A stretch of DNA of 64,000 bases. Source: an uncultured Ignavibacteria bacterium. GTDB lineage: Bacteria > Zixibacteria > MSB-5A5 > WJJR01. The DNA lies in the NCBI GenBank assembly GCA_964593585.1, contig CAZQIZ010000009.1:306-64305 (forward strand), given 5' to 3'. Position 1 is the stretch's first letter. Every line of letters begins with the position of its first letter. Below the pieces are notes generated by a model. The model made no database searches and was not told the origin of the DNA. It was given only the letters and a program-made list of their open reading frames with translations. The translations under genes and the position numbers were made by a program. Of this stretch, positions 25,757 to 44,605 are shown one piece after another.

Positions 25757-25770
25757 GGACTATATTAATC
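25757..25770 (+). promoter_or_regulatory. Conserved GGACTATATTA motif (-10-like TATATT) 66 nt upstream of the paralog D start
   Basis: The same CAGACTATATTAC motif lies 70 nt upstream of the paralog E start (28711-28725). AT-rich hexamer in an otherwise GC-rich intergenic region. Confidence 0.25.
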
Positions 25771-25835
25771 CCGATTTCCGTCTCGGACGGACGCAGTCTG
25801 CCCGTTTACCGCTGTCTGCCAATTTGGAGGACCTT

Positions 25836-28586
25836 ATGACCCGAAGTGCCATTGCGGGGATCTTGCTGGTGTGTGCCGCTGCCCTCACCGCGTACGCCGC
25901 CGTGCCCACCAGCATCACCGTGCAGGGAAAACTCACCGACGCCGGCGGCAACCCGCTCTCCGCCGGTCCGAAGAATTTCACATTCAAGATCTTTGACGCC
26001 TCTGTCGGCGGCGGCCAATTCTGGCCCGATGCCGGTGGCGAGAATCAAGTCATCACCACCGCCACCGATGGCACCTGGGTGGGTCTGGTCGGCGCGGTGA
26101 TCCCGATCCTGCTTGATGCCTTCGCCGACACATCACGCTGGCTGGAGATCACTGTCGACGGCATCACTCTGCCGCGCGTCCGCCTCGTGACCGGTCCCTA
26201 CGCGTACCGTGTCGGCACCGTCGACGGCGCCTCCGGCGGCACCATCACGAGCAAAGTGGCAATTGGCGAAGGGCACTTCAACGTCGGCTTCCACACATTC
26301 GTCGCCGGATTCGACAACAACGTCGACGGCGATTTCACGAGCGTGACGGGCGGCCGGAGCAATTCGGCCACCGGACAATTCTCGCACATCAGCGGCGGCG
26401 AAAATGACACGGCCAGTGGCAATCACTCAACCGTCGGCGGCGGCTTGCACAACCGGGCCACGCAATTGGAAACGACCATCGGCGGCGGACGCGACAATCT
26501 GGCCTCAGGCTTCGCCGCCACCATTGCGGGCGGCCGGGAGAATCAGGCGACGGCCACGGAGGCGACGGTCGGTGGCGGGCAACTCAATATCGCCGGCGGC
26601 AGCAACGCCACCATCGGTGGCGGTCAGGAAAACACCGCCACCGCTTTTGCCGCCACGATTGCCGGTGGCTATCAAAACAACGCGAGCGGAGGGCAGTCGG
26701 TGATCGGCGGGGGAGAAGGAAATATTGCCGCGGGGCTGTACTCGTCTGTCCTGAGCGGATTTGAGAATCGCAGCACGGCGGAGGGAGCAGTGATCGCGGG
26801 GGGCGCCGCCAACCGGGCGTCCGGCATCTATTCCTTTGTCGGCGGAGGCGGAGGAGCGTTGCCGGATTCCAATGCCGCTTCGGGCTCCTGGTCGAGTGTG
26901 GTCGGTGGCAGCCATAACGTCGCAAGCGGTCTGACGGCCTTTGTCGGGGGCGGTTCCGGCAATATTGCCAAGTCCGGAAGTGCCGCCATCGTCGGCGGAC
27001 AGAACAACCGCGCCGATACCGGCAGCACCTTCATCGGCGGCGGACGTGACAACCACGTCGATCAGGTGGATGCGGTCATCGGCGGCGGTTGGATGAACGA
27101 GGCATTGGGCAATACATCCGCGATTCTGGGCGGACGGAGCAATGTGGCCTCCGGCGCCGGCAGCGCCATCGTCGGCGGCGTTACCAACCGCGCACGCGGG
27201 GCGTTCTCATTTGTCGGAGGCGGCGGCGGAACCACCGCCACCGATTCCAATCTCGCGTTGGGAGACCTGTCCACAATCGCCGGCGGACGCGCCAATCTCG
27301 CGACCGGAGCATACAGCGTTGTCGGTGGCGGACAGAATAACGCCGCCACCCAGTTGGAAGCCAACGTCGGCGGAGGCAATGGCAACCGAGCCACCGGCAT
27401 TGCTTCAACAGTGGCCGGCGGACGGTCCGACACCGCCGCCGGGAGTTTTTCCACTGTCGGCGGTGGAATCCGCAATCGCGCCAATGACTACGCCACCGTC
27501 GCGGGCGGGATGGAAAACCGCGCCATCGGTAATTACGCAACCATTGGCGGTGGAAATCGCAACTTCGCTGAATTCGCCAGCACCATTGCCGGCGGACAAT
27601 TCAACACGGCGTCAGCCACCAATGGCGCCAGCATCGTGGGGGGCGTGCAAAACACGGCCGATGGTAGCTTCTCGTTTATCGGCGGTGGGTACCACAACCA
27701 GACCTACGGCGACTTGTCAACCATCGGCGGTGGAGGCGGAAGCAGCGACATCGACTCCAACGTTACGCGCGGATTGTGCGCCACCATCCCCGGCGGACGC
27801 CGCAACCGCGCCAACGGCAGCTTCTCCTTCGCCGCCGGACGACGCGCGCATGCCTTGCACCACGGCACTTTTGTCTGGGCCGATTCCACCGAAGCCGATT
27901 TCGTCTCGACCGCGCAGGACCAGTTCCTCATCCGCGCCTCCGGCGGTGTCGGCATCGGCACCAACGCGCCGGAAGGCCCCTGGCATGTGCAGAAGGGCAG
28001 CGCGGGCGCCGTCACCGCCAACAGCAACTCCATCGCCGTCTTTGAGACCAGCGCAAGCAATGGCTGGCTCTCCATCCTCGGCCCCGACAACGCGGAGCGC
28101 GGATTGCTGTTCACCGAACCGTCGAGCGCGGTGGCCGGGGCCATCGTCTTCGATCAGGGCGGCGGCGGAGATGACATCGGCTTCCGGACCGGAGGTAACG
28201 TTACGCGCATGACCCTTGATGCGTCTGGGAACCTCACGGTGTCAGGTTGTGTCGACGGCAACAACACGGCCTGTGCCTCCGATGAGCGATTCAAGACAAA
28301 CATCGCCACGGTCGATGACGCGCTGGCGCTTGTCGGGCGGCTGCGGGGTGTCCGGTACGAATGGCGCCGTGAGGAGTTCCCCGATCACTCCTTCGACGCC
28401 GGCGCACAGTACGGGGTCATTGCTCAGGAGGTCCGCGAAGTTCTGCCCGAGGTTGTCCGCGAGCGCGCCGATGGCTACCTCTCCGTCGAGTACAATGCGT
28501 TGATCCCGCTGCTGATCGAAGGCATGAAGGAGCAGCAACGCCAGATCGACGAGCTGAAGGCGGCGCTGCGCGCTCTCACCCCGTAG
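25836..28586 (+). CDS. Fibre-like surface protein paralog D (~916 aa), with S74-like C-terminal chaperone domain
   Basis: ATG 25836 after GGAGGA; the ORF-track start at 25650 lacks an RBS. Signal peptide MTRSAIAGILLVCAAALTAYA. Conserved N-domain. Very long Gly/Asn/Ala repeat region. C-terminus CASDERFKTNIATV...YGVIAQEVREVLPEVV...LIEGMKEQQRQIDELKAALRALTP. Confidence 0.85.
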   Translation: MTRSAIAGILLVCAAALTAYAAVPTSITVQGKLTDAGGNPLSAGPKNFTFKIFDASVGGGQFWPDAGGENQVITTATDGTWVGLVGAVIPILLDAFADTSRWLEITVDGITLPRVRLVTGPYAYRVGTVDGASGGTITSKVAIGEGHFNVGFHTFVAGFDNNVDGDFTSVTGGRSNSATGQFSHISGGENDTASGNHSTVGGGLHNRATQLETTIGGGRDNLASGFAATIAGGRENQATATEATVGGGQLNIAGGSNATIGGGQENTATAFAATIAGGYQNNASGGQSVIGGGEGNIAAGLYSSVLSGFENRSTAEGAVIAGGAANRASGIYSFVGGGGGALPDSNAASGSWSSVVGGSHNVASGLTAFVGGGSGNIAKSGSAAIVGGQNNRADTGSTFIGGGRDNHVDQVDAVIGGGWMNEALGNTSAILGGRSNVASGAGSAIVGGVTNRARGAFSFVGGGGGTTATDSNLALGDLSTIAGGRANLATGAYSVVGGGQNNAATQLEANVGGGNGNRATGIASTVAGGRSDTAAGSFSTVGGGIRNRANDYATVAGGMENRAIGNYATIGGGNRNFAEFASTIAGGQFNTASATNGASIVGGVQNTADGSFSFIGGGYHNQTYGDLSTIGGGGGSSDIDSNVTRGLCATIPGGRRNRANGSFSFAAGRRAHALHHGTFVWADSTEADFVSTAQDQFLIRASGGVGIGTNAPEGPWHVQKGSAGAVTANSNSIAVFETSASNGWLSILGPDNAERGLLFTEPSSAVAGAIVFDQGGGGDDIGFRTGGNVTRMTLDASGNLTVSGCVDGNNTACASDERFKTNIATVDDALALVGRLRGVRYEWRREEFPDHSFDAGAQYGVIAQEVREVLPEVVRERADGYLSVEYNALIPLLIEGMKEQQRQIDELKAALRALTP

Positions 28587-28600
28587 AAATCTGACACGGC

Positions 28601-28651
28601 CGATCCGCTTTCGCCCACTTTCCTGACCACAGGAGCGGCGAAAGCGGATCG
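28601..28651 (+). terminator. 15-bp inverted repeat (cgatccgctttcgcc ... ggcgaaagcggatcg) immediately after the paralog D stop; possible terminator or regulatory stem-loop
   Basis: Perfect 15-bp arms separated by a 21-nt loop. No T-tract, so function as an intrinsic terminator is uncertain. Confidence 0.3.
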
Positions 28652-28710
28652 CGCCAGTCCGGTTTGAACCCCGGAATCGGGCCGAAATCCCTCTCCTACT
28701 TCTTTCAGAT

Positions 28711-28725
28711 CAGACTATATTACTC
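28711..28725 (+). promoter_or_regulatory. Conserved CAGACTATATTAC motif (-10-like) 70 nt upstream of the paralog E start
   Basis: Matches the motif upstream of paralog D. Confidence 0.25.
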
Positions 28726-28794
28726 GCAAATCCCGTCACCGCGACGGCCGCTGTCTTACCTGTTGTTAAAACTGATCGTACCAGGAGGTCGCCA

Positions 28795-31302
28795 ATGACT
28801 CGCCGTATCATGACGGGAGTTCTCCTGCTGTTGGCTTTATCCACTACGGCGCACGCCGCCGTCCCGACCAGCATCACCGTGCAGGGCAAACTGACCGATT
28901 TGTCCGGCAACCCGCTGCCCGCCGGATCGAAGAATTTCACCTTCAAGATTTTCGATTCCCCCACGCTCGGCAATGAAATCTGGCCCAATGGGGCAGGGGA
29001 GAATCAGTCGCTGACCAGCGACGCCGCCGGTCTCTGGATCGGACTGGTCGGCGCGGTGGCACCGCTGACCGATGCGGTCTTCAGCGACACGGTTCGCTGG
29101 CTGGAAATCACCGTCGATGGGACCACGCTGCCGCGCGTGCGGCTTGTGACCGGGCCCTATGCCTACCGGGTATCGACGATCGACGGCGCCTCCGGCGGCA
29201 GGATCACCTCGAAGGTCACGATTGGCCTGTCCAACGCGAACACCGGCAACGACGGGTTTGTCGCCGGAACGGATAATCAGGCGCTCGCCAACTACACGGT
29301 CATCGGCGGCGGCGTACTGAACACCGCCACCGGCGAATCGAGCGTCGTGTCAGGCGGTCAGCAGAACGACGCGACCGGCTTCGCCGCCAGTGTCGCAGGT
29401 GGAGCGAACAACACCGCGTCCAACACACACGCGACCGTTGGCGGCGGATTGACGAATATGTCATCCGGCCTCCACTCCGTTATCGATGGCGGAATCTACA
29501 ATTTTGCGACGAGTACGGGATCCGTCGTTGGCGGCGGCGCCAACAATAACGCGCGCGGCCAGTATTCCACCGTCGCCGGCGGCGGGCCGGCCCTGACGGA
29601 CTCCAACACGGCCGGCGGCGACTTCTCGCGCATCGGCGGCGGCTTCGGCAATGTGGCGTCGGGGCACGCCAGCAGCATCGATGGCGGCCACTACAACATC
29701 GCGTCCGGGCTCTACAGCACGATCGGAGGCGGTCAATTCAACGCCGCCCAGGGCACGTTCTCGACGATCGCCGGCGGTGGAATCGCAAACATCTTCAATG
29801 GCCAGAACATCGCCGAGGGTTACGCGACGGTGATCGGCGGGGGCTCCGCGAACCGTGCCGTGCACAACTATTCAACGATCGGCGGCGGATTGAACGGACA
29901 GACACGGGGCGCATACTCCACGCTCGCCGGGGGATACAGCAATCTGACGGACGGCGACAATGCCACCGTGGGAGGCGGCGATCGCAACGCCGCCGCGGGG
30001 ACCGGCGCCACGGTGAGCGGCGGCACGCTTAACTACACAAACGCGATCGGTGCGGTTGTCGCCGGCGGCGACACCAATTCCGCGCAGGGCTTCTTTGCGG
30101 TCGTGGGCGGCGGCATCCTCAATGACGCCCCCGGCCACGAAAGCGTGGTCGAAGGGGGACGTGACAACACGGCCTCCGGCGATCTCGCCACCGTGGGCGG
30201 CGGCGCCTACAACACCGCATCGGGCGCCGGCTCGCACATCTCCGGTGGGTTCAATAATACGGCTGTCGGCGAACGCTCGACTATTGGTGGGGGAGAGCAG
30301 AACCGTGCCTATGGCAGTTTTGCCACTGTTTGTGGCGGCGGCGGCGGACTCCCAGTCGACTCGAATTCCGCCGCCGGCAATTTCTCATTCGTCGGTGGCG
30401 GGAGCCGCAACTCCGCCAGCGGCCCCGGCGCCGTCATCGCAGGCGGCGACTCAAACCGCTCCAAGGGCCAGAACTCAACGGTGGGCGGCGGCGGGTTCAA
30501 TGTCGCTGGCGGCACCAATGCAACAGTTCCGGGCGGCCTCGCGAACGAAGCCAATGCCCCCTTCACTTTTCCCGCCGGGTCGTTCGCGCACGCGAACCAT
30601 GCCGGGAGCTTCGTCTGGGCGGACCACAATTTTCTCGACTCATTCTACACGACTGCCACCAACCAGTTCATCATCCGTGCCAGCAGCGGCGTCGGCATCG
30701 GCACGAACACCCCGCAGCAGCTCCTCAGTGTCGCTCAGGGAATGAATATCGATCAGGCCAATGCGAACGATGGCGCACTTTGGAACGGCCTGAGCTTCGG
30801 CTCCACAAGCGGCGAAGGCATTGCTTCGAAACGTACCGCCGGCGGCAATCAGTATGGATTGGACTTCTACACCAACTCAATCAACCGTGTTAGCATTGCG
30901 AACGCGACCGGGTATGTTGGCTTCGGACTGACCAATCCATCCTATCGGATCGACCTGCCGAACGTCGCGAATGCCGCCGGCCAGGGCCGCGCGAATGCGT
31001 GGACGACGTATAGTTCACGCCGCTGGAAGACGAATATCACGACACTGTCCCACGCGGTCGACAAGGTCCGTCAACTCCGCGGCGTTGAATACGACAACGC
31101 CGCCGACAACCGCCACGCCATCGGGCTGATCGCCGAGGAAGTCGGCGCCGTCATCCCGGAAGTCGTGCAATACGAAGCCAATGGTGTCGATGCCGCCGCG
31201 CTGGACTATGGTCGTCTGGTTGCCGTGCTGATCGAGGCCATCAAGGAACAGCAGCGCCAGATCGATTTGCTCAATCGCAAACTGGAACGGATCACGCCTT
31301 AA
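28795..31302 (+). CDS. Fibre-like surface protein paralog E (835 aa), with S74-like C-terminal chaperone domain
   Basis: AGGAGG RBS. Signal peptide MTRRIMTGVLLLLALSTTAHA. N-domain nucleotide sequence ~100% identical to paralogs F and G over ~270 bp. C-terminus SSRRWKTNITTL...IGLIAEEVGAVIPEVV...LIEAIKEQQRQIDLLNRKLERITP. Confidence 0.85.
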   Translation: MTRRIMTGVLLLLALSTTAHAAVPTSITVQGKLTDLSGNPLPAGSKNFTFKIFDSPTLGNEIWPNGAGENQSLTSDAAGLWIGLVGAVAPLTDAVFSDTVRWLEITVDGTTLPRVRLVTGPYAYRVSTIDGASGGRITSKVTIGLSNANTGNDGFVAGTDNQALANYTVIGGGVLNTATGESSVVSGGQQNDATGFAASVAGGANNTASNTHATVGGGLTNMSSGLHSVIDGGIYNFATSTGSVVGGGANNNARGQYSTVAGGGPALTDSNTAGGDFSRIGGGFGNVASGHASSIDGGHYNIASGLYSTIGGGQFNAAQGTFSTIAGGGIANIFNGQNIAEGYATVIGGGSANRAVHNYSTIGGGLNGQTRGAYSTLAGGYSNLTDGDNATVGGGDRNAAAGTGATVSGGTLNYTNAIGAVVAGGDTNSAQGFFAVVGGGILNDAPGHESVVEGGRDNTASGDLATVGGGAYNTASGAGSHISGGFNNTAVGERSTIGGGEQNRAYGSFATVCGGGGGLPVDSNSAAGNFSFVGGGSRNSASGPGAVIAGGDSNRSKGQNSTVGGGGFNVAGGTNATVPGGLANEANAPFTFPAGSFAHANHAGSFVWADHNFLDSFYTTATNQFIIRASSGVGIGTNTPQQLLSVAQGMNIDQANANDGALWNGLSFGSTSGEGIASKRTAGGNQYGLDFYTNSINRVSIANATGYVGFGLTNPSYRIDLPNVANAAGQGRANAWTTYSSRRWKTNITTLSHAVDKVRQLRGVEYDNAADNRHAIGLIAEEVGAVIPEVVQYEANGVDAAALDYGRLVAVLIEAIKEQQRQIDLLNRKLERITP

Positions 31303-31313
31303 GGAGCGCTCTT

Positions 31314-33587
31314 ATGCGACAACTCACGCTCGGACTGCTCGCCTTGCTGCTGGCCACGACGCCCCTTCACGCCGCCGTCCCGGCCAGCATCACCGTGCAG
31401 GGCAAACTGACCGATCTGTCCGGCAACCCGCTGCCCGCCGGATCGAAGAATTTCACCTTCAAGATTTTCGATTCCCCCACGCTCGGCAATGAAATCTGGC
31501 CCAATGGGGCAGGGGAGAATCAGTCGCTGACCAGCGACGCCGCCGGTCTCTGGATCGGACTGGTCGGCGCGGTGGCACCGCTGACCGATGCCGTCTTCAG
31601 CGACACGGTTCGCTGGCTGGAAATCACCGTCGATGGCACGACCCTGCCGCGGGTGCGCCTGGTAACAGGGCCCTATGCGCATCGTGTCGCCACCGTCGAT
31701 GGCGCATCGGGCGGCACGATCACCAGCAAGGTCTCCATCGGTCCGGGTCACATCAACACGGGCACCCACGCCTTCGTCGCCGGCTCCTACAACGTCGGAA
31801 CGGGCAATTACTCGACCATTGCCGGCGGTGAAACCAACACCGCCTCCGGCGACCGCGGCAGTGTCGGCGGCGGCGCGCAGAATCACGCCGAAGGATTCGG
31901 TTCCACTGTTGACGGCGGCTGGTACGGCCACGCCTGGGGCAACTTTGCCGTGATCGGCGGCGGCGGCGGGATCTTCGATATGGATTCTAACAGCGCCGGC
32001 AACTGGGGCGTGGTGGCCGGCGGGCACATGAACCATGCGATCGGCGAAGGCGCGGTCGTCGGTGGCGGCGCGCGCAATCGCGCCCGCGGCGAATACTCCG
32101 TCATTGCCGGCGGCGGCGGCTTCACCGATGCCGATTCGAATGTCGCCTCCGGCTCCCACGCCGTCATCGGTGGCGGCACCGGCAACACTGCCTCCGGATT
32201 CCACAGTCTGATCGGCGTCGGACGCTCCAATCTCGCCAGCGGCTATCACGCCGCCATCCTCAGCGGCGCCATCAACGTGGCCGGCGGACAGTACGGCGTC
32301 GTGGCGGGCGGGTACGACAACCACGCCATCGGCTGGATGTGCTCGATTGTCGGCGGCGCCAGCAATCGCGCCGACAACAACAACTCCTTTGTGGGAGGCG
32401 GGGAATACAATGAGGCCACCGGCTCACATGCCGTCATCGGCGGCGGCCAGAGCAATCAGGCCCTCGGTGATTACTCCGTCATCGCCGGCGGCGGCAATAC
32501 CAGCGCCGACTCCAACCGCGCGCAGGGGGCATACTCGGCCATCGGCGGCGGAAACCTCAACCTCGCCATGGCTGACTACGCCGTCACCTGCGGCGGCCTG
32601 AAAAACGGCGCCTGGGGATATGGCAGCGGCGTCGCCTCCGGATACCTCAACGAAGCGGAGGGAACGTACTCGTTCATCGGGGGCGGCAACAACAACCTCA
32701 TCCTCTACGCGCGCTCCTTCATCGGCGGCGGCGAGGGCGGCCAGGTGAGCGGCCAGCACTCCGTCATCGCCGGCGGCAACGGCAATTACGTCGGCTCCGA
32801 TGTAGCCTCCATCGTCGGCGGCACACGCAACATGATCAACTTCACCAACTCGGGCGGTTCCTTCATCGGCGGCGGCTGGGAAAACTATGTCGATGGTTTC
32901 GACGCGGTTGTCGGCGGCGGATTCCATGATTCCGCCTCCGGCAATCAGGCGGCGGTCTGTGGCGGCCACACCAACCACGCCGCCGGAAACCTCTCGTTCG
33001 TCGGCGGGGGGGACTTCAACCGCGCCACCGGCGACTGGGCCTGCATCCCCGGCGGCGGCTCGAACGCCGCCGCGGGCCAGTTCGCCTTCGCCGCGGGACG
33101 TCAGGCCAAGGCCAATCACAGCGGCGCCTACGTCTGGTCCGACAACAACCCCTTCGACTTCGCCTCGCTGGCCAATAACAGTTTCTCGGCGCGCTGCCTC
33201 GGCGGCGCGCGCTTCGTGACCGCCATCAGCGCCGGCGGCGTCCCCACACAGGGCGTGACTCTGGCCGCCGGCGGCGGATCGTGGGCGGGGATCTGCGACA
33301 GCGCCGTCAAGGAGAACATTCGCGACGTCGACGGCGCCGAAATCCTCCGCCAACTCGCCGCCCTGCGCATCGCCGAGTGGAATTACATCGCCCAGGATGA
33401 CAGCGTCCGTCACCTCGGGCCCATGGCGCAGGACTTCCGACGCGCCTTCGGCATCGGCGAAGACGATCGCCACATCACCCAGGTCGACGCCGATGGCGTC
33501 GCGCTGGCCGCCATTCAGGAGCTCATCCGCCGCATCGAAATGCTGGAAGGCGAGCTCGCGCGGCTCCGCGCACGGAATGGCGATTGA
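31314..33587 (+). CDS. Fibre-like surface protein paralog F (757 aa), with a divergent S74-like C-terminal domain
   Basis: AAGGAG RBS, ATG 11 nt after the paralog E stop. N-domain identical to paralog G over ~370 bp. Divergent C-terminus CDSAVKENIRDVDGAEILRQL...LGPMAQDFRRAFGIG...LAAIQELIRRIEMLEGELARL retains the K-x-N-I and A-Q-x-x / I-x-E-L pattern. Confidence 0.8.
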   Translation: MRQLTLGLLALLLATTPLHAAVPASITVQGKLTDLSGNPLPAGSKNFTFKIFDSPTLGNEIWPNGAGENQSLTSDAAGLWIGLVGAVAPLTDAVFSDTVRWLEITVDGTTLPRVRLVTGPYAHRVATVDGASGGTITSKVSIGPGHINTGTHAFVAGSYNVGTGNYSTIAGGETNTASGDRGSVGGGAQNHAEGFGSTVDGGWYGHAWGNFAVIGGGGGIFDMDSNSAGNWGVVAGGHMNHAIGEGAVVGGGARNRARGEYSVIAGGGGFTDADSNVASGSHAVIGGGTGNTASGFHSLIGVGRSNLASGYHAAILSGAINVAGGQYGVVAGGYDNHAIGWMCSIVGGASNRADNNNSFVGGGEYNEATGSHAVIGGGQSNQALGDYSVIAGGGNTSADSNRAQGAYSAIGGGNLNLAMADYAVTCGGLKNGAWGYGSGVASGYLNEAEGTYSFIGGGNNNLILYARSFIGGGEGGQVSGQHSVIAGGNGNYVGSDVASIVGGTRNMINFTNSGGSFIGGGWENYVDGFDAVVGGGFHDSASGNQAAVCGGHTNHAAGNLSFVGGGDFNRATGDWACIPGGGSNAAAGQFAFAAGRQAKANHSGAYVWSDNNPFDFASLANNSFSARCLGGARFVTAISAGGVPTQGVTLAAGGGSWAGICDSAVKENIRDVDGAEILRQLAALRIAEWNYIAQDDSVRHLGPMAQDFRRAFGIGEDDRHITQVDADGVALAAIQELIRRIEMLEGELARLRARNGD

Positions 33588-33640
33588 TGAAATCGGAGTT
33601 TTTGCTCGCCCGTATCTGGGCGGATTGACAGGAGGTCCCG

Positions 33641-35731
33641 ATGCGATTCACCATCCGATTGTCACTCATCGTGCTCTTGCTGTTGCCGTCACTGGCGCAC
33701 GCCGCCGCCCCGACCAGCATCACCGTGCAGGGCAAACTGACCGATCTGTCCGGCAACCCGCTGCCCGCCGGATCGAAGAATTTCACCTTCAAGATTTTCG
33801 ATTCCCCCACGCTCGGCAATGAAATCTGGCCCAATGGGGCAGGGGAGAATCAGTCGCTGACCAGCGACGCCGCCGGTCTCTGGATCGGACTGGTCGGCGC
33901 GGTGGCACCGCTGACCGATGCCGTCTTCAGCGACACGGTTCGCTGGCTGGAAATCACCGTCGATGGCACGACCCTGCCGCGGGTGCGCCTGGTAACAGGG
34001 CCCTATGCGCATCGTGTCGCCACCGTCGATGGCGCATCGGGCGGAACCATCACCAGCAAAGTGTCCATCGGCCCCGGCCACACGAACACTGGCAACCATG
34101 CCTTCGTAGCTGGAGAAGGCAATGCGGCGTCCGGGCACTACGCCACCGTCAGCGGCGGCATCGGCCACAACGCCGGCGGTGAGAACGCTGTGGTGGGCGG
34201 CGGCGCTTACAACCGCGCCGATGGTCTCTCGTCCGTCGTGGCCGGCGGCTACGCCAACGCCGCGCTCAACACCGACGCGGTTGTCGTCGGCGGCTACGCC
34301 GATTCCGCCCTTGGCTATCGCTCCTTTATCGGCGGCGGCGCCGACAACAACACCAGCGCCGATGCCAGCAGCGTCGTCGGCGGCACCGCCAACCTCGCCG
34401 GCGGCGGCGGATCGTTCATCGGCGGCGGCATCGGCAACAAGACCGCTGGCTTCGATGCCGTCGTGGCCGGCGGCGCGACCAATGTCGCTTCCGGGTCACG
34501 CTCGTTCGTGGGCGCCGGGCAGAGCGATTCCGCGCTCGGAGCGCGCTCCGCCGTCGTCGCCGGACAACTCAATTCCGCCTACGGCTCTCAATCCTTCATC
34601 GGCGCCGGCGGCAGCAACCGTGCCGGCAACTCCGCCGCCGTCGTCGCCGGAAGCGCCAGCGAAGCCACCGGCAACGCCGCCTTCATTGGCGCCGGCACCC
34701 TCAACGAGGCGTCGGGACTGTACGCGGTCATCGGCGGCGGCTCCCAGAACATTGCCACGCACTACGGCGCCGTGGTGGTCGGCGGCGAGAACAACGATGC
34801 CGACTCGACGCTCACGTTTGTCGGCGGCGGCGTTCACAACATCGCCCGCGGTAACCTCTCTGCGGTGGTCGGCGGCAGCAGCAATCAGGCGCTGGCACCC
34901 AACGCCTTCGTCGGCGGCGGCGCCAATAATGTTGCCTCCAACTTCTACAGTGTCGTCGCCGGCGGATTCTACGATTCGGCCAGTGGAGGAAACGCCGTTG
35001 TCGGCGGCGGCTACTTCAATCTCGCCGAAGGTTCCGTGTCAACCATTGCCGGCGGCAGTTATGGACGCGCCCGTGGCGGTTTCTCCTTCATCGGCGGCGG
35101 TGGATTCTTCGGCGATGCCGACTCCAATTACACGCACGGCACCGGCTCCGCCGTCGTCGGCGGCGCCCGCAACGGCGCGCTCGGCGACTACGCCGTCGTG
35201 CCCGGCGGATATGGCAATCGCGCCGTCGGTAGCCACTCCATGGCGGCGGGCGAAAACGCCTCCGCCGACCACGATCACTCCTTCGTCTGGAATGACAACT
35301 CGGCGGGCGCGTTCGCCTCGACCGCCGCCAGTCAATTCGCGATTTCTGCCGCCAATGGACTGCGGCTGGCGCGCGCCGCCGGCGACGCCAAGGCGATTGT
35401 GCCGGGTGATCACTACCGCGACAACGGCATCATCGCCTGGGCCAAAGTCGCCGGCAGCAGCGGCGCCATCGGCACCAATGAGTTCGGCGTCGTGTCCGTT
35501 GTACGCAATTCCACCGGGTACTACACCATCACCCTCGACGCCTCCGCGAGCGTCTCCACGACACTTATTCCGGTGGTCACGGCGCTGGTCGACCGCGCGC
35601 CGACCGATCCCTCGTTCGCCCGGCTGATCTATGCCCAGCAGGTTGGCATCAACTCGTTCAGCGTCTATGTCACCGATGGCAACTACGCCGCCGCCGACAC
35701 CGATTTCACCTTCCTGGTGACCGCACGATAA
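33641..35731 (+). CDS. Fibre-like surface protein paralog G (696 aa), lacking the S74-like chaperone domain and ending in a different C-terminal domain
   Basis: AGGAGG RBS. Signal peptide MRFTIRLSLIVLLLLPSLAHA. Conserved N-domain. Gly/Asn/Ala/Val repeats. C-terminal ~150 aa (GIIAWAKVAGSSGAIGTNEFGVVSVVRNSTGYYTITLDASASV...) has no SDxRLK or LIEAxKE motifs. Confidence 0.8.
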   Translation: MRFTIRLSLIVLLLLPSLAHAAAPTSITVQGKLTDLSGNPLPAGSKNFTFKIFDSPTLGNEIWPNGAGENQSLTSDAAGLWIGLVGAVAPLTDAVFSDTVRWLEITVDGTTLPRVRLVTGPYAHRVATVDGASGGTITSKVSIGPGHTNTGNHAFVAGEGNAASGHYATVSGGIGHNAGGENAVVGGGAYNRADGLSSVVAGGYANAALNTDAVVVGGYADSALGYRSFIGGGADNNTSADASSVVGGTANLAGGGGSFIGGGIGNKTAGFDAVVAGGATNVASGSRSFVGAGQSDSALGARSAVVAGQLNSAYGSQSFIGAGGSNRAGNSAAVVAGSASEATGNAAFIGAGTLNEASGLYAVIGGGSQNIATHYGAVVVGGENNDADSTLTFVGGGVHNIARGNLSAVVGGSSNQALAPNAFVGGGANNVASNFYSVVAGGFYDSASGGNAVVGGGYFNLAEGSVSTIAGGSYGRARGGFSFIGGGGFFGDADSNYTHGTGSAVVGGARNGALGDYAVVPGGYGNRAVGSHSMAAGENASADHDHSFVWNDNSAGAFASTAASQFAISAANGLRLARAAGDAKAIVPGDHYRDNGIIAWAKVAGSSGAIGTNEFGVVSVVRNSTGYYTITLDASASVSTTLIPVVTALVDRAPTDPSFARLIYAQQVGINSFSVYVTDGNYAAADTDFTFLVTAR

Positions 35732-36245
35732 TTCCCGCGACACGGGCCGGCAGTTGTGCCGGCCCGTGCGCACGTACCGCCATGGCTGGATGGCAACGCG
35801 CCGTCAAGAGCGCCGCACATCGGATGACGCTTCCATAATGTCATCCTGAGCGAGGCGAAGGATCTGCTTTTCGCGGGTGGCTGCATTCGAAAGCAGATTC
35901 CGATCGGAGTGACATGGGGAGCAAGCGCGTCCTGGGAGGGCTCTCCGCCGCGGCGGATCGCCCTCCCGCGCACATCTACCTGACTTGGCTGCCGCCAAGT
36001 TTTCGCAACCTTTCGCGCTCCGCCCCGTCTAATCCGCAGGCGCCCCTGACGCGCCCCGATAAACCATTACATGGCTAGTCAGTCCATAGTCGCTGACATT
36101 CAATAGGATAGGGCCCTTCGCCTCGCCGATCGCTTCAATCTGCCTCTGGCGAAAGCAGACCGCTTTTGGCTATCCTTCCGCTCTGTTTTGCGCATCGAAT
36201 GACATTTCGTCCATGATCAATAACCAATCACCAAAAGGAGTCCGC

Positions 36246-38963
36246 ATGAAGTCCGCTCGTTGGGCGCTCGCCTTGGCCCTGCTGATCGCCTTCGCGACAC
36301 CGGCCCTCTCGGCCGACCTGCCGCCGATCAACCACGAGAAGTATGAACTCCCCAACGGTCTCGATGTCATCCTGCATGTCGACAAGACCATCCCGACCGT
36401 CACCGTCAACATCTGGTACCATGTCGGCTCCAAGAACGAAGAGAAGGGACGCACCGGCTTTGCCCACCTCTTCGAGCACATGATGTTCCAGGGCTCCAAG
36501 CACCACGACACCGACTATTTCGCCCCGCTGGAGAAAGTTGGTGGCGAGGTCAACGGCTCCACCTCCGAGGATCGCACCAACTACTACGAGACCGTGCCGA
36601 GCAACTACCTCGAGCTCGCCCTCTGGCTCGAAGCCGACCGCATGGGCTACCTCCTGCCGGCCATGACCCAGGAGCGTCTCGACAACCAGCGCGATGTGGT
36701 CAAAAACGAGCGCCGTGAGGGTGTCGACAACCAGCCCTATGGCCGTGTCTGGGAAAACCTCGGCTGGCTCATGTATCCCGAAGAGCATCCTTACAACTGG
36801 CCGGTCATCGGCTACATGGAAGACCTCTCGGCCGCCTCGCTGGAGGATGTGCAGAACTTCTTCAAGCTTTACTATGCGCCCAACAACGCCTCGCTGTGCG
36901 TGACCGGGGACTTCGATCCGGCGGAGGCCAAGGCGCTGATCGAAAAGTACTTTGCCGCCATTCCGGCCGGGCAGCCGATCATGCGCAAGGAAGCGTGGAT
37001 TCCCGAACTCGATGGCATCCGTCGCGGACAGATGGAAGATGCCGTTTCGTTGGCGCGCGTCTACTATGCGTTCCCCAGCCCCGGATATTACACCCCCGGC
37101 GACGCCGAACTCGACATTCTCGCCAATGCGCTCACCAACGGCAAGACCTCGCGCCTCTACAAGTCGCTGGTCTATGACAAGCAGATCGCGCAGGATGTCG
37201 CCGCCTTCCAGTCCTCCTCGGAGCTGTGCGGCAACTTCATCATTCAGGCCACTGCGCGCGAGGGGCACACGCTCGCCGAACTGGAAGCCGCGCTCGACGC
37301 CGAACTGAAAAAGATTCTGGCGGAAGGCATCACCGCCACCGAACTGGCCAACACTCAGGCGCAGTTGGAGGCCGGCTTTGTCCGCTCGCTCGAAGATCTC
37401 GGACGCCGCGCCGACAAGCTGAATGAGTACAACGTCTTCCTCGGCGATCCCGACAAGTTCGAGTGGGATCTCGATCGGTATCAGAATGCCACCGTCGCCG
37501 GCGTCAACGCCGCAGCCAAGCGCTGGATCGACCTCGACCGCCGCGTGATCTTCCATGTCCTCCCGCAGGGCACCTATGTCGCTGCCGAGGACAAGCTCGA
37601 CCGCTCCATCAAGCCGACCGCGGCGGCCGATCCGTCGTTCACTCCGCCGGCGATCCAGAAGGACAAACTCTCCAACGGCGTCGAAGTCTGGCTGGTGCAG
37701 GACGACAAACTCCCGCTGGTCCAGACCAACATCGTCTTCAAGGGCGGCTGGGCGCTCGAACCGGCCGGCAAGGCCGCCGTCGGCTCGATGACCTCCGACA
37801 TGATGGACGAGGGCACCAAGACCCGCACCGCTCTGCAGATTTCCGAGGAAGCCAAAAGCATCGGCGCCAACCTCGGCACCGGCTCCTCGTTCGATAACAT
37901 GAGCGTGTCGCTCAACGTGCTGAAAAAGTACCTCGATCGCGGCTATGCGCTCTTGGCCGACATCCTGATGAATCCCACCTTCCCGCAGGAAGAGCTCGAC
38001 CGGCAGAAGAAGATGTACATGGGACGTATCGCGCAGGAAAGCAAGCAGCCGAACACCGTGGTGCAGAAGACCTTTCTCAGGACGCTCTACGGCGCCGATC
38101 ATCCCTATGGCCGCCCCTTCACCGGATCCGGCACCAAGGCCTCAATCAACGCCATCACGCGCGACGACCTGGTCGCGTTCCATCAGGCCAACTATGTGCC
38201 GTCTAATGCCGCCATCGCGGTGGCCGGCAACATCACCATGGCCGAGGCCAAAGCCGCCCTCGAGAAGGCCTTCAAGGGCTGGGCCTCGACCGCGCCCGCC
38301 CCGGTGGTCAACATCCCCGACCCGGCGCCGGTCACCAAGACCCAGGTCGTGATCGTCGACAAGCCCGGCGCGCCGCAGAGCGCGATCATGGTCGGCCACG
38401 CCGGCATCAAGCGCTCCGATCCCGACTACATGCCGATCCGCGTCATGATGAACGTGCTCGGCTCGCAGTTCACCAGCCGCATCAACATGAACCTGCGCGA
38501 GGACAAGGGCTACACCTACGGCGCCTTCGGCAATTTCGCGGCGCGCCGCGGCACAGGCCCCTTCCTGGTCACCGCCCAGGTCCAGACCCCCAACACCAAG
38601 GAAGCCGTCTTTGAATTCGTCAAGGAACTGCGCGACATCATCTCCACCCGCCCCGTCTCCGCCGAGGAACTCGAGGACGCCAAAAACGACCTGATCAAGT
38701 CGTTCCCCAGCGGCTTCGAATCGATCGGCGCCGTGGCCGGCGGCATGAGCACGATGTTCTCCTATGACCTGCCCCTCGATGAGTGGCAAACCTTCGCCGC
38801 GCGCGTCAACGCCGTCGATCTGGCCGCCGCCAACCGCGCCGCGACCAACCACATCAATCCCGACGCGCTCCTGATCGTGATCGTCGGCGATCGCGCCAAA
38901 ATCGAGGAAGGCATCAAGTCGCTCAATCTCGGCGATGTGGCCTTTGTCTTGGCCGAGGAGTAG
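36246..38963 (+). CDS. Secreted M16-family (pitrilysin/insulinase-like) zinc metallopeptidase, duplicated M16 unit (~905 aa)
   Basis: AAGGAG RBS. Signal peptide MKSARWALALALLIAFATPALSA. Inverted zinc motif HLFEHMMFQG (HxxEH) near the N-terminus. A second M16-like half in residues ~470-900. Confidence 0.85.
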   Translation: MKSARWALALALLIAFATPALSADLPPINHEKYELPNGLDVILHVDKTIPTVTVNIWYHVGSKNEEKGRTGFAHLFEHMMFQGSKHHDTDYFAPLEKVGGEVNGSTSEDRTNYYETVPSNYLELALWLEADRMGYLLPAMTQERLDNQRDVVKNERREGVDNQPYGRVWENLGWLMYPEEHPYNWPVIGYMEDLSAASLEDVQNFFKLYYAPNNASLCVTGDFDPAEAKALIEKYFAAIPAGQPIMRKEAWIPELDGIRRGQMEDAVSLARVYYAFPSPGYYTPGDAELDILANALTNGKTSRLYKSLVYDKQIAQDVAAFQSSSELCGNFIIQATAREGHTLAELEAALDAELKKILAEGITATELANTQAQLEAGFVRSLEDLGRRADKLNEYNVFLGDPDKFEWDLDRYQNATVAGVNAAAKRWIDLDRRVIFHVLPQGTYVAAEDKLDRSIKPTAAADPSFTPPAIQKDKLSNGVEVWLVQDDKLPLVQTNIVFKGGWALEPAGKAAVGSMTSDMMDEGTKTRTALQISEEAKSIGANLGTGSSFDNMSVSLNVLKKYLDRGYALLADILMNPTFPQEELDRQKKMYMGRIAQESKQPNTVVQKTFLRTLYGADHPYGRPFTGSGTKASINAITRDDLVAFHQANYVPSNAAIAVAGNITMAEAKAALEKAFKGWASTAPAPVVNIPDPAPVTKTQVVIVDKPGAPQSAIMVGHAGIKRSDPDYMPIRVMMNVLGSQFTSRINMNLREDKGYTYGAFGNFAARRGTGPFLVTAQVQTPNTKEAVFEFVKELRDIISTRPVSAEELEDAKNDLIKSFPSGFESIGAVAGGMSTMFSYDLPLDEWQTFAARVNAVDLAAANRAATNHINPDALLIVIVGDRAKIEEGIKSLNLGDVAFVLAEE

Positions 38964-39122
38964 AAGACACAAACGCGCTCTGCCAACGGGCGGCTCCTCA
39001 CCGGAGCCGCCCGTTGTTGTTCGGCCCCGGACGTTTCGGCGTCAACAATTGATTGAATCGTCTCCGGCCACCGCTGATATTGCGCCCCACGCTGATACGC
39101 GGACCATGTTGAGGAGAGCCAG

Positions 39123-41921
39123 ATGAACATCGCCGTGCGTTTTCTCGTTGCCGTTCTCGCCGTTGTCGCCGTCACCGCCACTGCCTTCGCGGCCCCGCCG
39201 CTTTTGAACAACGGCAACGTCGCCGATCACTTCGCCCAGATCGCCTACGATCCCGCCGTCCCGACCCCGCAGTCGGTGCTCGGCTATCCGCTCGGGTCGC
39301 GTCCGGCCCGCTACGAGGAAGTCATCCGCTACCTGCGGACGCTCGATGAGTTCTCGTCGCGCGCCGAGTTGTTCGAGACCGGGCAGACGCACGAGGGACG
39401 GCCGCTTTACTGCATGATCATCGGTTCGCAGAAGAACTTCGACAACCGCGAGAAGATTCGCGCCGATCTGGCCGCGCTGGCCAATCAATCGTCCGATGGC
39501 GCCGTGTCCAACCGCGAGGCCATCCTCGCCGCGACGCCGGCGGCCGTCTGGCTGGGTTACTCCATCCACGGCGATGGAATCTCCGGCGTTGATGCCTGCC
39601 TCTGGGTCGCCTACCACCTGCTGGCCGCGCAGGACGCCGAAACCAAGATGATCCTCGACAGCGTGCTGGTCCTGATCGATCCCAGTCAGAATCCCGATGG
39701 CCGCGAACGCTTCCTCGCGCAGATTTTCGCCTGGAATGGACGTGTCCCCTCCACACGCGCCGGCGATCTGCAGCACGGCGGCTTCTGGCCGTGGGGACGC
39801 GGCAATCACTACCTCTTCGATCTCAACCGCGACTGGCTGCCGCTGGTCCATCCGGAGACCAAAGCGCGCGTTGATGTCCTCAACCAGTAAAACCCACAGG
39901 TGGTGGTCGACGCCCACGAAATGGGCTCCTACTCCACCTATCTCTTCTCGCCGGGACGCGAACCGATCAATCCCAACATCACCGCCGAACTGCTGCATTG
40001 GTGGGATGTCTTCGCCGCCGACCAGGGCGCCGAGTTCGACAGGCGCGGCTGGAGTTATTACACCGGCGACTGGCACGAGGAATGGTATCCCGGCTATGGC
40101 TCCGCCTGGTGCCTCTTCACCGGCGCGCTGGGCATCCTCTATGAGCAGGCCGGCGCCGAAGGATCATCGGTCAAACGCCCCGATGGCTCGGTGCATGACT
40201 ACCCGCGCGCCGTGGCGCAACAGGCGGTCAGTTCCTTCGCCAATCTCGCCACCACCGCGAAGAATCGCCGCGCGTTGCTGACCGACTACGCCAACTTCCA
40301 CCGCGATGGCGCCCTGGGCCGCGCCCGCGACGGTCTGCGCGGCGCCTACCTCTTCGCCACCGGCAACAACCCCGGACGCGAGGCCGAATTCCTTACCACC
40401 ATCCAGGGCCATGGGCTGCGTGTCGAGAAAGCCGCCGCCTCCTTCCAGGCCGCGGTGATCACCGCGCAGGGCGAACGCGCCAGCCGCACCTATCCCGCCG
40501 GGACTTACATCATCCCGATGAATCAGCCGCGCGCGCTCCTGGCGCAGGCGCTTCTGGAGTTCGACCCGCACCTGAAAAAGTCCTTTCTCGAGGAGGAACG
40601 CCGCTCGCTTGAAAAGGGAGAGGGCACCCGGATGTATGAAGTCTCCGGCTGGTCTTTGGCGCAGGCCTATGATCTCGACATTGCCTACGCCGAGTCGCGC
40701 CCCGGCGTCGCCGCCGACAACGCCGAAGCGCCGACTCCGTCGGAAGGAAAACTGCTCAACCCCGATGCGACCTACGGCTTCCTCGTTGCCGCGGGCGATG
40801 ACCGCGCCATGCCGGCGTTGGTGAAGATGCTCGACGCCGGCCTGAGTGTGCGCGTGGCGACCAAACCGTTCGTGCATCAGAATGTCCCCTATGAGGCCGG
40901 CACGCTCATCGCGCGTCGCGGCGAGAATGGCCCCGATTTGATCGCCAAACTCGAACCGATCGCCTGCGCCACCGGCGTGACGATCCTCGGCACCTCGAGC
41001 AATTACTCCTCCTCCGGCATCGACCTCGGCTCCGATCTCTGGGAACTGCTGCGCGCGCCGCGTGTCGGCCTCTTCTGGGGACCGAATGTCGATTTCACCA
41101 GCGCCGGCTGGCTCTGGTATGAAATCGATCAGCGACTGGGTGTCATCCATTCGCTCCTCGACATCAATTCACTGGACTGGTATGACCTGTCGGCCTACAA
41201 CGTGCTCATCATTCCCAACACCTGGGGCAATCCGAAGGAGGCCCTCGGCGAGCAGGGAGTGGCGGCGCTGAAGAAGTGGGTGCAGGCGGGCGGCACGCTG
41301 ATCGCGGTCAACGAGCCGGCGTATTTCCTTGCTGATTCCGCCGCCGGCTTCTCGCAGGCGCGCGAGTACAGTCAGGTTCTCGACAAACTCGGCGACTACA
41401 ATCTGGCGTTCCTTGAGGAACGCGCCGCGGCGACCGCCACGGTCGATACCAACGCGGTCTGGCGCGGCGTCACGCCGACTGCCTCCGCCCCCAAACCGGC
41501 CGAAAAACCCTCGCCCGAGGAGCTGGCCAAACGCAACGAGAAGGCGCGCACCTTCGGCCCGCAGGGTGTCATCATGCGGCTGAACCTCAATACCGAACAC
41601 TGGCTCTGCTTTGGAACCGGCGGACGCGCCAGCGCGATGATCTATTCACGCAACGCCCTCCTGGCAAAAGACCCGGTGCAAATCGCCGCCCGTATCGCCG
41701 GCCCCGACAAGATGCGCCTCTCCGGCCTCCTCTGGCCCGAAGCCCGCGAGCGCTGGGCCAACACCGCCTACTGCACGCGCGAATCGATGGGCAAAGGCCA
41801 ACTCATCCTCTTTGCCGATGAACCGTTCTTCCGCGCCTACTTCCACGGCACCCGCCGTCTCCTGGAAAACGCTATCGTCCTCGGTCCGGGCATCGGCACA
41901 GCATTCCCCGCGCCCTGGTAG
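39123..41921 (+). pseudogene. Secreted M14-family zinc carboxypeptidase-like protein interrupted by an in-frame TAA (39888-39890); the track ORFs 39123-39890 and 39900-41921 are one reading frame
   Basis: AGGAGAG RBS and signal peptide at 39123. SIHGDGISG (HxxE-position region) lies upstream of the stop, and the CPA-like third-ligand region VVVDAHEMGSYS (compare IHSYSQ) lies immediately downstream in the same frame (...RVDVLNQ*NPQVVVDAHEMG...). The conserved domain therefore spans the stop. Confidence 0.55.
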
Positions 41922-41964
41922 CAACGCTGCCGCCGGTTTGGCCGGTGCGATAGGTAATCACCCA

Positions 41965-42003
41965 ATCCCCTCTCCCCTGAAAGGGGAGAGGGGATTTTGA
42001 TTG
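41965..42003 (+). terminator. Stem-loop atcccctctcccc-tgaaa-ggggagaggggat followed by ttttgatt; probable intrinsic terminator after the M14 gene
   Basis: Perfect 13-bp palindrome arms with a 5-nt loop and a downstream T-run. The core (ctctccc/gggagag) is shared with the palindromic repeat family seen elsewhere in the window. Confidence 0.5.
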
Positions 42004-42056
42004 TGGATAGCCGCCTAACCCCCCTTTCTTCCCGCACCAACCCAGCGAGGGACACC

Positions 42057-43271
42057 ATGATCACCATCCGGCCGTTGCGCACCAAAGCGGAGCTTGAGCA
42101 GTACATGGAGCTCTGCATCTACTGCTTCTCCTTCTCGTCGGAGTACACGCCCTACTACGCCAACTTCATCGGCCCGCACCTCGACTGCACTATGGGCGCC
42201 TTCGATGGGCCGCGCTTGGTGGCGGCGATGTGGGGCATTCCCTTTGAGATGAATGTCATCGGCGCGCACCTGCCCATGGCCGGCATCTCGGTGGTGGCCA
42301 CACGCCCCGAGGTGCGCAACCTCGGTTTGGCCAAAGAACTGATGACCGTCTCCCACCAGCGGATGAAGAAGGAGGGCATCCCATTGGCGGTGCTCATGCC
42401 CTTCAAGCCGGTCTTCTATGCGCGCATGGGTTATGGCGATGTGTTCTACTACCACGACTGCCAGCTCCAGCCCGGCGCCATTGCCGAACTGGAACCGCGC
42501 GGCTATCGGGTTGCACCCGTCGACGGCAACAAGGAATGGAAGACCTTCGACCGCCTGCACCGCCAGTACAGCGCCCGCTATTTCGGGACCGTCAACCGCG
42601 GCGAACGGTACTGGAAGATCCGCTATATGAACTCGCCCTTCGGCCCGCGCTTTCACTACCTGATTCTGCGCGGGCAGGAGCCGGTCGGATACATCATCAC
42701 ACACCTCGATAAGCCCAACCCCGCGATTTCGTCCGATCTGCGCCGCGAGACGCGGCTCACCATCATGCAGGCGGTCTGGACCGACCAGGGCTCCTTCGAT
42801 GCCATCCTGCAATTCGTGCGCGCCCATCGCGACCAGCACGGCAAGATCGAATGGTATCTGCCCACCGATGTTCCGCTCCATGACCGGCTGGTGGATCAAC
42901 GCATCACCGTGGCGCTCAAACCCAAGATGATGCTCAAACTGGTCGACCTGAAGGCCGCCATTGAACGCCGTCCGTTCACCGCCGACTTCGACGCGGACAT
43001 CATCCTGCAGGTCAAAGGCGATGACACCAGCCCCTGGAACGATGGCCTCTGGCGCATTCACTGGCGCGGGGGAGAGGCGAAGGTGACACGGACCACCGCC
43101 GGCGCCGGCAGGGCCCGCATCGACATCGCCTCGCTGGCCGTGCTCTATTCCGGCCATCGTGACGCCGCCGCGCTCGAACGCCTGGGCCGTCTCTCCGGTC
43201 CGCGCGCGGCGATCGAGACACTGGCGCGCGCCTTCCCTGCGCGTGTCTGCTATATCGACGACTGGTTCTAA
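42057..43271 (+). CDS. GNAT-family N-acetyltransferase with C-terminal sterol-carrier-like domain (Eis-like architecture)
   Basis: ATG 42057 (MITIRPLRTKAELEQYMEL). The ~400-aa length and GNAT-like core motifs (VATRPEVRNLGLAKELM) followed by a long C-terminal extension resemble Eis-type acetyltransferases. Confidence 0.65.
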   Translation: MITIRPLRTKAELEQYMELCIYCFSFSSEYTPYYANFIGPHLDCTMGAFDGPRLVAAMWGIPFEMNVIGAHLPMAGISVVATRPEVRNLGLAKELMTVSHQRMKKEGIPLAVLMPFKPVFYARMGYGDVFYYHDCQLQPGAIAELEPRGYRVAPVDGNKEWKTFDRLHRQYSARYFGTVNRGERYWKIRYMNSPFGPRFHYLILRGQEPVGYIITHLDKPNPAISSDLRRETRLTIMQAVWTDQGSFDAILQFVRAHRDQHGKIEWYLPTDVPLHDRLVDQRITVALKPKMMLKLVDLKAAIERRPFTADFDADIILQVKGDDTSPWNDGLWRIHWRGGEAKVTRTTAGAGRARIDIASLAVLYSGHRDAAALERLGRLSGPRAAIETLARAFPARVCYIDDWF

Positions 43272-43417
43272 GCCCGGGCTCCCGGCCACAGGCAGCGGCG
43301 CGCTCGGCAATGGACCGGACGGGGTCCGATTTCGTGACATCCTCCCGGACAATCCCGCTTGCAAAAGCCCGGCTTCGCGTCGATCTTTTTTAGTGAGGTC
43401 AGATAAGGAGGTCGACG

Positions 43418-44605
43418 ATGAAACGCCGCCCACAATGGATGTCCTGGTGCCTGGCGTCTTTCGCATTGCTGGTGCTGGGCGCCGCTCCCGCGGCCCTGGC
43501 CCAATCCACCGAACCGATTGTCATCGGCGCGGTCATTTCACTCACCGGACGCGACGCCGCCTTCGGCCAGGAATGCCTGGCCGGGTTGGACATCGCCCTG
43601 GAGGAAGCCAACGCCGAGGGTGGGATTCACAACCGCCCGGTCACTCTGCAGGTCTTCGATGACAAGTCCGACCCGATCCTCGCCGCCGAGGGGGTGCGCA
43701 CACTGGTCCGCCAGTTCTCGCCCATTGCCATCATCGGCTCCAACACCTCGATGGTCACCAAGGCCGCCGCGGTGGCGGCGCAGAATGTCGGCGTGCCGCT
43801 GATTGTCCCCGAAGCCACCGAGCCCGACATCACTGCCATCGGCGAATGGATCTACCGTGTCTGCTTCGTCGATCCCGACATGGCCCGCGGTCTGGCAGCG
43901 TATGCCTACACCGATCTCGGCCTGCGCCGCGTTGCCGTGCTGACCGAAGACAAACACGATTACACCGTCTCGTTCACCCGCTACTTCCGCGACCGCTTCA
44001 TCGAACTGGGCGGCGAAATTGTCTACCAGTCGGGGTACCGTCAGGGCACCACCACCTTCGATGAGTTGCTCAAGCAGGCGTCGTCGCTGCATGCCGACGC
44101 TGTCCTGGTGTCCGGCTTTTATCCCGAGGCGGGCAGCGTGATCGCCTGCGCCAAGCGGCTGGGCGAGAACCTCACCTTCCTCGGCGGCGACGGCTGGGAA
44201 TCCGATGGCCTGTTCACCGCCGCCGGCGATGCAATTACCGATCGCTCGCGGATCTTCATCGCCTCGCACTTTTCTCCCGATGTTCGCCGCGCCAAGGTGC
44301 GCGGGTTTGTTGAGGCCTTCCGCGAGAAATTCGGACGCCGTCCCAACACCTCCTCCGCCCTCGGCTTCGACGCCGGCGGGCTGGTGATGGGCGCCGCCAT
44401 GCGCGCCGCCTCGCTGGATCCGGCCGGCATCAAGGCCGCGCTGGCCGATGCCCGGCATGAGGGCGTCACCGGCTACATAACCATCGGCGCCAACCGCAAC
44501 CCGTCGAAGAAGGTCATCATCCTCCAGGCCGGCGATGATCAGCGATTCGCCTATGTGCGCGCCATTTCCTCGGAAACGTTGCGTGTGCCGGAGTCGACAC
44601 AGTAG
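43418..44605 (+). CDS. ABC transporter periplasmic substrate-binding protein, branched-chain amino acid (LivJ/LivK, Peripla_BP_6) family
   Basis: GGAGGT RBS. Signal peptide. Sequence PIVIGAVISLTGRDAAFGQECLAGLDIALEEANAEGGIHNRPVTLQVFDDKSDP typical of Liv-type binding proteins. Confidence 0.8.
   Translation: MKRRPQWMSWCLASFALLVLGAAPAALAQSTEPIVIGAVISLTGRDAAFGQECLAGLDIALEEANAEGGIHNRPVTLQVFDDKSDPILAAEGVRTLVRQFSPIAIIGSNTSMVTKAAAVAAQNVGVPLIVPEATEPDITAIGEWIYRVCFVDPDMARGLAAYAYTDLGLRRVAVLTEDKHDYTVSFTRYFRDRFIELGGEIVYQSGYRQGTTTFDELLKQASSLHADAVLVSGFYPEAGSVIACAKRLGENLTFLGGDGWESDGLFTAAGDAITDRSRIFIASHFSPDVRRAKVRGFVEAFREKFGRRPNTSSALGFDAGGLVMGAAMRAASLDPAGIKAALADARHEGVTGYITIGANRNPSKKVIILQAGDDQRFAYVRAISSETLRVPESTQ

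Follow-up and report, generated by a model that had tools for sequence, protein, structure and literature searches.

The window, by which we mean the whole 64-kb stretch of DNA analyzed here (64% GC), carries on its plus strand, at positions 39123-41921, a reading frame of 932 codons that is open to a terminal TAG except for one internal TAA at codon 256. This TAA (39888-39890) is the sole break between two ORFs in the same frame, 39123-39890 and 39900-41921. The first ORF begins with a Sec-type signal peptide, as judged by eye (MNIAVRFLVAVLAVVAVTATAFA/AP), and encodes the first half of an M14 carboxypeptidase catalytic domain. The frame that follows the stop supplies the remainder of the M14 domain, then a middle region rich in beta structure, and finally a glutamine-amidotransferase-like (ThuA-like) domain at the C terminus. 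The start of this downstream ORF has been called at GTG 39900 (JGI, 673 aa) and at ATG 39921 (NCBI, 666 aa), and neither codon has anything upstream comparable to the GAGGAG that precedes the first ATG. The codon of His265 (39915-39917) and that of the presumed catalytic Glu341 (40143-40145) both lie 3′ of the TAA. The features of the locus are as follows.

38984..39016, plus strand: strong hairpin followed by GUUGUUGUU, located after the upstream M16 peptidase gene (-34.3 kcal/mol, z = -3.85, 0/200 shuffles)
39112..39117, plus strand: Shine-Dalgarno-like GAGGAG, 5 nt before ATG 39123 (read from the sequence)
39123..39890, plus strand: N-terminal fragment of 255 codons with an ATG start, ending at the premature TAA (ORF list, Pfam PF00246)
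39576..39578, plus strand: GGA (Gly) at codon 152, a position that is invariably Glu in the family and is the second zinc ligand of HxxE (alignment; GAA in the sister allele)
39888..39890, plus strand: premature TAA, codon 256, in place of Trp (TGG) (homolog alignment, sister allele)
39891..41921, plus strand: remainder of the original frame, 676 codons and TAG (ORF list, translation)
41964..41996, plus strand: intrinsic-terminator-like hairpin of 15 pairs followed by TTGATTG, 43 nt past the TAG of the gene (z = -5.3)

The gene order around the frame (window 36213-44605) is M16 peptidase (pitrilysin-like, 916 aa), M14, Eis-like GNAT/SCP2 acetyltransferase and periplasmic binding protein. The order is kept in relatives down to ~55% identity (loci L006-L009 and L030-L032), and the locus may represent a peptide-degradation and uptake neighborhood. 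The hairpin at 38984..39016, which a simple terminator scan did not flag, is probably the terminator of the M16 gene, setting the M14 gene apart as a transcription unit of its own.

Two further regions of the window were noted in passing. Seven large tandem ORFs of 557, 855, 698, 978, 835, 757, and 696 aa occupy 19242-35731 on the plus strand, and each of the first six has a Pfam Peptidase_S74 domain at its C terminus, a domain that acts as intramolecular chaperone in endosialidases and in the tail fibers of phages. The segment 33900-34107, just 3′ of the ATG of the seventh ORF, is repeated at 31570-31777 (94% nucleotide identity) and at 29054-29250 (81.5%). The region looks like an array of paralogous self-cleaving fiber or surface proteins in a bacterial chromosome. 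A 396-aa ORF at 61600-62790 (plus strand) has a weak match to Pfam Phage_capsid_4 (28.3 bits against a cut-off of 27) and may be left over from a prophage or encode a shell protein of the encapsulin type.

Split frames as such carry little information in this DNA. A single stop between two open frames, each 150 codons or longer, occurs at 28 places in the window, so the bare pattern is common and not beyond chance, and it is homology that makes the M14 case real. A scan of the window for further split genes turned up nothing beyond clearly distinct genes and ORF pairs that share a frame by chance. The original prediction for this locus, made from the letters of the window, held that the two ORFs share a frame with the TAA alone between them, that the region of the third zinc ligand begins four codons past the stop, and that an alternative genetic code is unlikely, with TAA, TAG and TGA all serving as normal stops. 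All three statements were borne out. The stop lies at the coordinates given above, the segment VVVDAHEMG starts at codon 260, and over 32 chosen ORFs, 31 of which were taken as genes, the stops are TAG in 14 cases, TGA in 11 and TAA in 7 (a count that includes the internal one). Based on this usage, we assigned the standard genetic code.

The Pfam Peptidase_M14 profile (PF00246) matched the N-terminal fragment with 63.9 bits (cut-off 21.6), aligning residues 69-238 with profile positions 3-133 of 286 and ending at the stop. When the same profile was run against the uninterrupted protein of a sister allele, described below, the match rose to 72.5 bits and spanned position 256, extending over residues 69-279. 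Querying with the two halves joined gave more than 2,300 database matches; nearly all of the best 120 are single proteins 920-970 aa long, whose named sources are mostly Zixibacteria but also include KSB1, Calditrichota, Latescibacteria, WOR-3, and Gemmatimonadota. The family (~930 aa, in which a carboxypeptidase A (CPA)-like catalytic domain is followed by a beta-rich middle region and then by a ThuA/GATase1-like C terminus) is widespread in Zixibacteria and neighboring FCB-group phyla. As far as our searches show, it is an M14 plus ThuA-like family without any characterized member; the intact protein gave 0 matches by phmmer against the PDB and 0 in an NCBIfam search. Within the 64-kb window no M14 paralogue was found; a 933-aa ORF at 5830-8631 encodes a sortilin/BNR protein.

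Both halves of the interrupted frame form one chain in 118 of 118 aligned full-length homologs. They are likewise fused, collinear and in one frame wherever a locus outside the window's own clone, taken from GTDB genomes or JGI metagenomes, spans the two. The option that the halves are independent domains normally encoded by separate genes, which the original prediction had named as a reason to abandon its reading, was thus not seen.

In an AlphaFold model of the uninterrupted sister protein (pLDDT 84.4, pTM 0.85), helix 244-256 ends with position 256, and the strand bearing His265 (260-266) follows directly. In Foldseek searches of this model against the PDB, the N-terminal ~350-370 residues matched whole carboxypeptidase A, B and T chains, with top matches at E values of ~1e-9 to 1e-10 and target-normalized TM scores of 0.60-0.70 (0.67-0.70 for the carboxypeptidase A chains, which also gave the best E value, 3e-10). 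Given the position at the helix end and the whole-chain matches, the stop is predicted to split the catalytic alpha/beta fold rather than to fall at a domain boundary, and the 255-residue product of the window would be unable to complete the CPA-like fold. The C-terminal 532 residues are predicted to fold confidently on their own (pLDDT 87.6) and are similar to domains of the ThuA-like and class-I glutamine-amidotransferase-like types, among them the middle domain of GH42 galactosidases.

We then considered the residues of the zinc site. An alignment of 40 sequences showed H149, E152, R226, N235-R236-D237, H265-E266, and E341 to be invariant, and when the family profile was compared with the PDB, its HGdE segment aligned with HAREW, the zinc motif in carboxypeptidases A2 and B. 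The window copy reads HGDG at codons 149-152 (H149-G-D-G152) and so departs from HxxE, and the residues expected to supply the third zinc ligand (H265, in DAHEMG) and the catalytic glutamate (E341, in LYEQ) do not share a polypeptide with its N-terminal half. Order, invariance, and fold suggest that H265 and E341 correspond to His196 and Glu270 of CPA; the assignment stays inferred because a profile limited to residues 215-400 found nothing in the PDB beyond fucosidases at chance level (E ~0.06).

The homolog alignment also gives the residues expected at the altered positions. At the stop, homologs have Trp in 115 of 118 cases and Phe in the remaining 3; at the fourth position of the HGDG segment (codon 152), Glu is found in all 117 homologs that cover it; and position 122, which is Gln in the window (P122Q, derived), is Pro in 111 of 119. 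The original prediction had called for such an alignment at the stop, and the answer differs from the codons it had suggested there (CAA, GAA or TAC), the ancestral codon being TGG (Trp). Its suspicion that HGDG in place of HxxE may mark an inactive homolog is supported at the level of sequence by the 117 glutamates and by the GAA codon of the sister allele.

The sister allele (P0123/L002, Logan SRR21120500 contig 55041) is uninterrupted, encodes 932 aa with HGDE and LNQW, and has the M16 gene upstream, as in the window. It is equal in length to the window gene and shares 95% nucleotide and 97% amino-acid identity with it, 140 of 2799 nt being different. At codon 152 the sister has GAA where the window has GGA, and at codon 256 it has TGG where the window has TAA. 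Among the loci from GTDB genomes and JGI metagenomes that lie outside the window's clone, HG[DN]E is present wherever the motif was found and W or F at 256 wherever the position could be scored. Since the sister allele and the other loci are intact at both sites, both lesions are derived and confined to the window's lineage. The same stop, for which a check in related genomes had been proposed, occurs neither in the 118 homologs nor in these loci.

The change from TGG to TAA amounts to two adjacent G>A substitutions. Between window and sister, five codons show more than one nucleotide difference, and adjacent double differences, which include codons 12, 122, and 256, number 7 between window 39123-41921 and L002 650-3448, where 3.5 are expected (P = 0.056). 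This hints that multinucleotide mutations are part of the divergence in the window's lineage. A tandem mutation, or a neutral second change following a first TGA or TAG, would each be an unremarkable route to TAA. With adjacent doubles only mildly enriched, we claim no special mutational source of GG>AA, whether a deaminase or a tandem CC>TT event of the UV type.

Searches of metagenome contigs recovered no TGA or TAG intermediate: the exact pattern CTCAACCAGTNNAACCCNCAGGTGGT, which would have caught any allele at the stop codon, found nothing, and a protein-based scan returned only relatives at no more than 61% identity. In genome contigs, the scan yielded no species representative closer than 79%, and the organism was therefore placed from its relatives, mostly labelled Zixiibacteriota, with a few Ignavibacteria. 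A literature search on the sample and run accessions found nothing.

The broken allele is reproducible. It is present in JGI 3300037501, JGI 3300043243, Logan SRR12686701, and Logan SRR12687342 with 0 differences over the 2799 nt, and these four contigs are 100% identical to the window over up to 14 kb. Public collections already contain proteins identical to the 255-aa and 673-aa products, and the cluster of these proteins also contains the 666-aa NCBI call (ATG 39921) and the 932-aa P0123. The 666-aa and 255-aa gene calls imply an NCBI MAG copy of the broken allele. That the TAA and the GGA recur identically from two assembly pipelines and several read sets argues against random error. The contigs represent a single clonal population, which limits their independence, as does a possible overlap between the JGI and SRA read sets.

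To place the break in time, we compared the window gene with its sister. Pairwise dN/dS is 0.079 (dS 0.18), with similar values on the two sides of the stop (0.088 and 0.076); the tail of the neighboring M16 gene gives 0.18, higher than the M14 gene. There are no indels or frameshifts between the two alleles, and of the 112 columns that are at least 97% conserved, the window violates one (E152G), a number typical for the family. The low dN/dS, the absence of indels and the single violated column together indicate that the break is very recent.

Polarization against outgroups at ~60-80% identity assigned 15 of the 29 amino-acid differences to the window and 5 to the sister, with 9 ambiguous, and placed four of the window-derived changes at conserved sites (P122Q, E152G, W256*, and L919V). 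Polarizable synonymous changes number 19 in the window and 17 in the sister. The nonsynonymous skew of 15:5 against the synonymous 19:17 hints at relaxed constraint on the window branch but is not significant (Fisher p = 0.15; binomial p = 0.04). Branch omega, obtained by arithmetic from the change counts, is ~0.12 for the window and ~0.05 for the sister, a contrast that would fit constraint lost over roughly the last tenth of the branch and that is likewise not significant by the same Fisher test.

We consider it highly probable that the locus is a very young pseudogene of a secreted M14 zinc carboxypeptidase of ~932 aa. The original prediction had proposed that a recent nonsense mutation turned the gene of a secreted M14 peptidase into a pseudogene, and the intact 95% sister and the conserved Trp and Glu uphold that proposal. 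At least two disabling changes arose after the split from the 95%-identical sister population. The change of Trp256 to TAA cuts the protein midway through the catalytic fold, ahead of His265 and the presumed catalytic Glu341; the change of Glu152 to Gly removes the second zinc ligand of HxxE; and Pro122 to Gln is a third derived change at a conserved site. Ribosomes loading at the ribosome-binding site of 39123 would terminate at 39888 and give an exported 255-aa fragment without two of the three zinc ligands and without the catalytic Glu, which would not bind zinc properly and would presumably be unstable and inactive. The downstream 673-codon frame would be reached at most by inefficient reinitiation, and its product would be in the wrong compartment. 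We infer that peptidase function has been lost and that a translated C-terminal product is absent. Two points run counter to this: the rest of the gene looks healthy, with a dN/dS that alone would also fit continued selection, and the GTG at 39900 lies only 9 nt past the stop, leaving room for some reinitiation.

These two points would also suit a functional split or an adaptive inactivation, where one or more pieces are kept for a non-catalytic role or the loss of the peptidase is itself selected. The pieces would be a secreted, dead N-terminal fragment of 255 aa and possibly a reinitiated, cytoplasmic ThuA-like C-terminal protein, or no protein would be made; the route would be, in a gene pristine in all other respects, the E152G knock-out plus a tight ochre stop that TGG reached through TGA or TAG as a leaky intermediate. 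The closeness of the GTG to the stop and the predicted independent folding of the C-terminal 532 residues are in keeping with such a split, but the cut falls inside the M14 alpha/beta core and not at the domain boundary near residue 400, so that the C-terminal product would bear ~140 residues of orphaned half-domain. This product would moreover have neither a ribosome-binding site nor a signal peptide, and the halves are separate genes in no relative. Two knock-out lesions (five nucleotide changes, touching three conserved positions when P122Q is counted) in a gene that otherwise shows low dN/dS and no indels could be taken as a sign of selection. However, low overall dN/dS is expected from mere recency, and the broken copies are all identical, so that selection on the pieces cannot be shown. 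We regard a split or an adaptive inactivation as unlikely.

The original prediction had listed programmed readthrough and sequencing error as alternatives, and the data disfavor both. Readthrough or recoding of the UAA to give a full-length protein would account for the collinear frames and for a downstream frame that is open for 676 codons. The stop is, however, not conserved, being absent from the 95% sister and from all other homologs examined (118 proteins and the loci outside the window's clone); the ancestral residue is Trp, and no bacterial mechanism is known to read UAA as Trp. TAA terminates six others of the 31 ORFs taken as genes in the window, and a tRNA scan of the window found none, so no suppressor tRNA is encoded there. 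The RNA at 39885-39960 is no more structured than shuffles (z = -1.06; 29/200 shuffles fold as well), and the intact sister allele is, if anything, more structured 3′ of codon 256 (z = -3.0). A full-length product would, in addition, still be without the zinc ligand Glu152, and we judge readthrough to be very improbable. The contigs being metagenome consensus sequences, and the broken copies being clonal and possibly drawn from overlapping read sets, a sequencing or assembly artifact that conceals a genomic TGG also has to be weighed. It would require two adjacent G>A miscalls and a third change 310 nt away, all reproduced at the consensus level in two JGI and two Logan (SRA-run) assemblies made with different assemblers, as well as in the NCBI MAG copy implied by the gene calls. 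An artifact of this kind is highly unlikely.

If the locus is a young pseudogene, as we favor, the public 255-aa and 673/666-aa "hypothetical protein" calls would be the halves of one dead M14 gene. They would then best be annotated neither as two genes nor, in metabolic reconstruction of the MAG, as an active extracellular peptidase. The pair of intact and broken alleles, 95% identical, would be a small natural case of gene loss at the level of strains, in an uncultivated phylum from sediment or soil.

An additional observation concerns another member of the family. A locus on CAZFAL010000080.1 (L021, ~2835-2840), from a MAG labelled Ignavibacteriales, belongs to the same M14 family at 44% identity and has an in-frame TAA of its own, which lies near the N terminus at a different and variable position (...YQLHDSIT*LAGSTRRAELFEY...). 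The locus is thus a candidate for a second, independent pseudogene, unless its stop reflects an assembly error. Its occurrence in an unrelated MAG suggests sporadic loss of the M14 gene.

Compared with known M14/PF00246 carboxypeptidases of the A/B/T type (MEROPS M14), the intact sister protein shares the profile match and the CPA-like alpha/beta fold, and the ~930-aa family has the NRD, DxHE, and LYEQ motifs invariant and in the expected order. His69 and Glu72 of carboxypeptidase A align with H149-x-x-E152 of the intact family. The family differs from the solved M14 enzymes in sharing only ~15% identity with them and in having ~530 extra C-terminal residues, including the ThuA/GATase1-like domain. 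The window copy differs further, with HGDG in place of HxxE and a truncation before the third zinc ligand; because the zinc motif and the continuity of the chain are both broken, we class it as an M14 pseudogene rather than an M14 enzyme. The event belongs to a well-known class, a lineage-specific nonsense mutation accompanied by an active-site missense mutation. As in young nonsense pseudogenes generally, a disabling lesion lies in an otherwise intact gene, an intact orthologue exists in a close relative, and the lesion is apparently fixed in one clonal population. Nothing essential differs from that class, the slightly unusual feature being the combination of two adjacent G>A changes with an active-site missense mutation.
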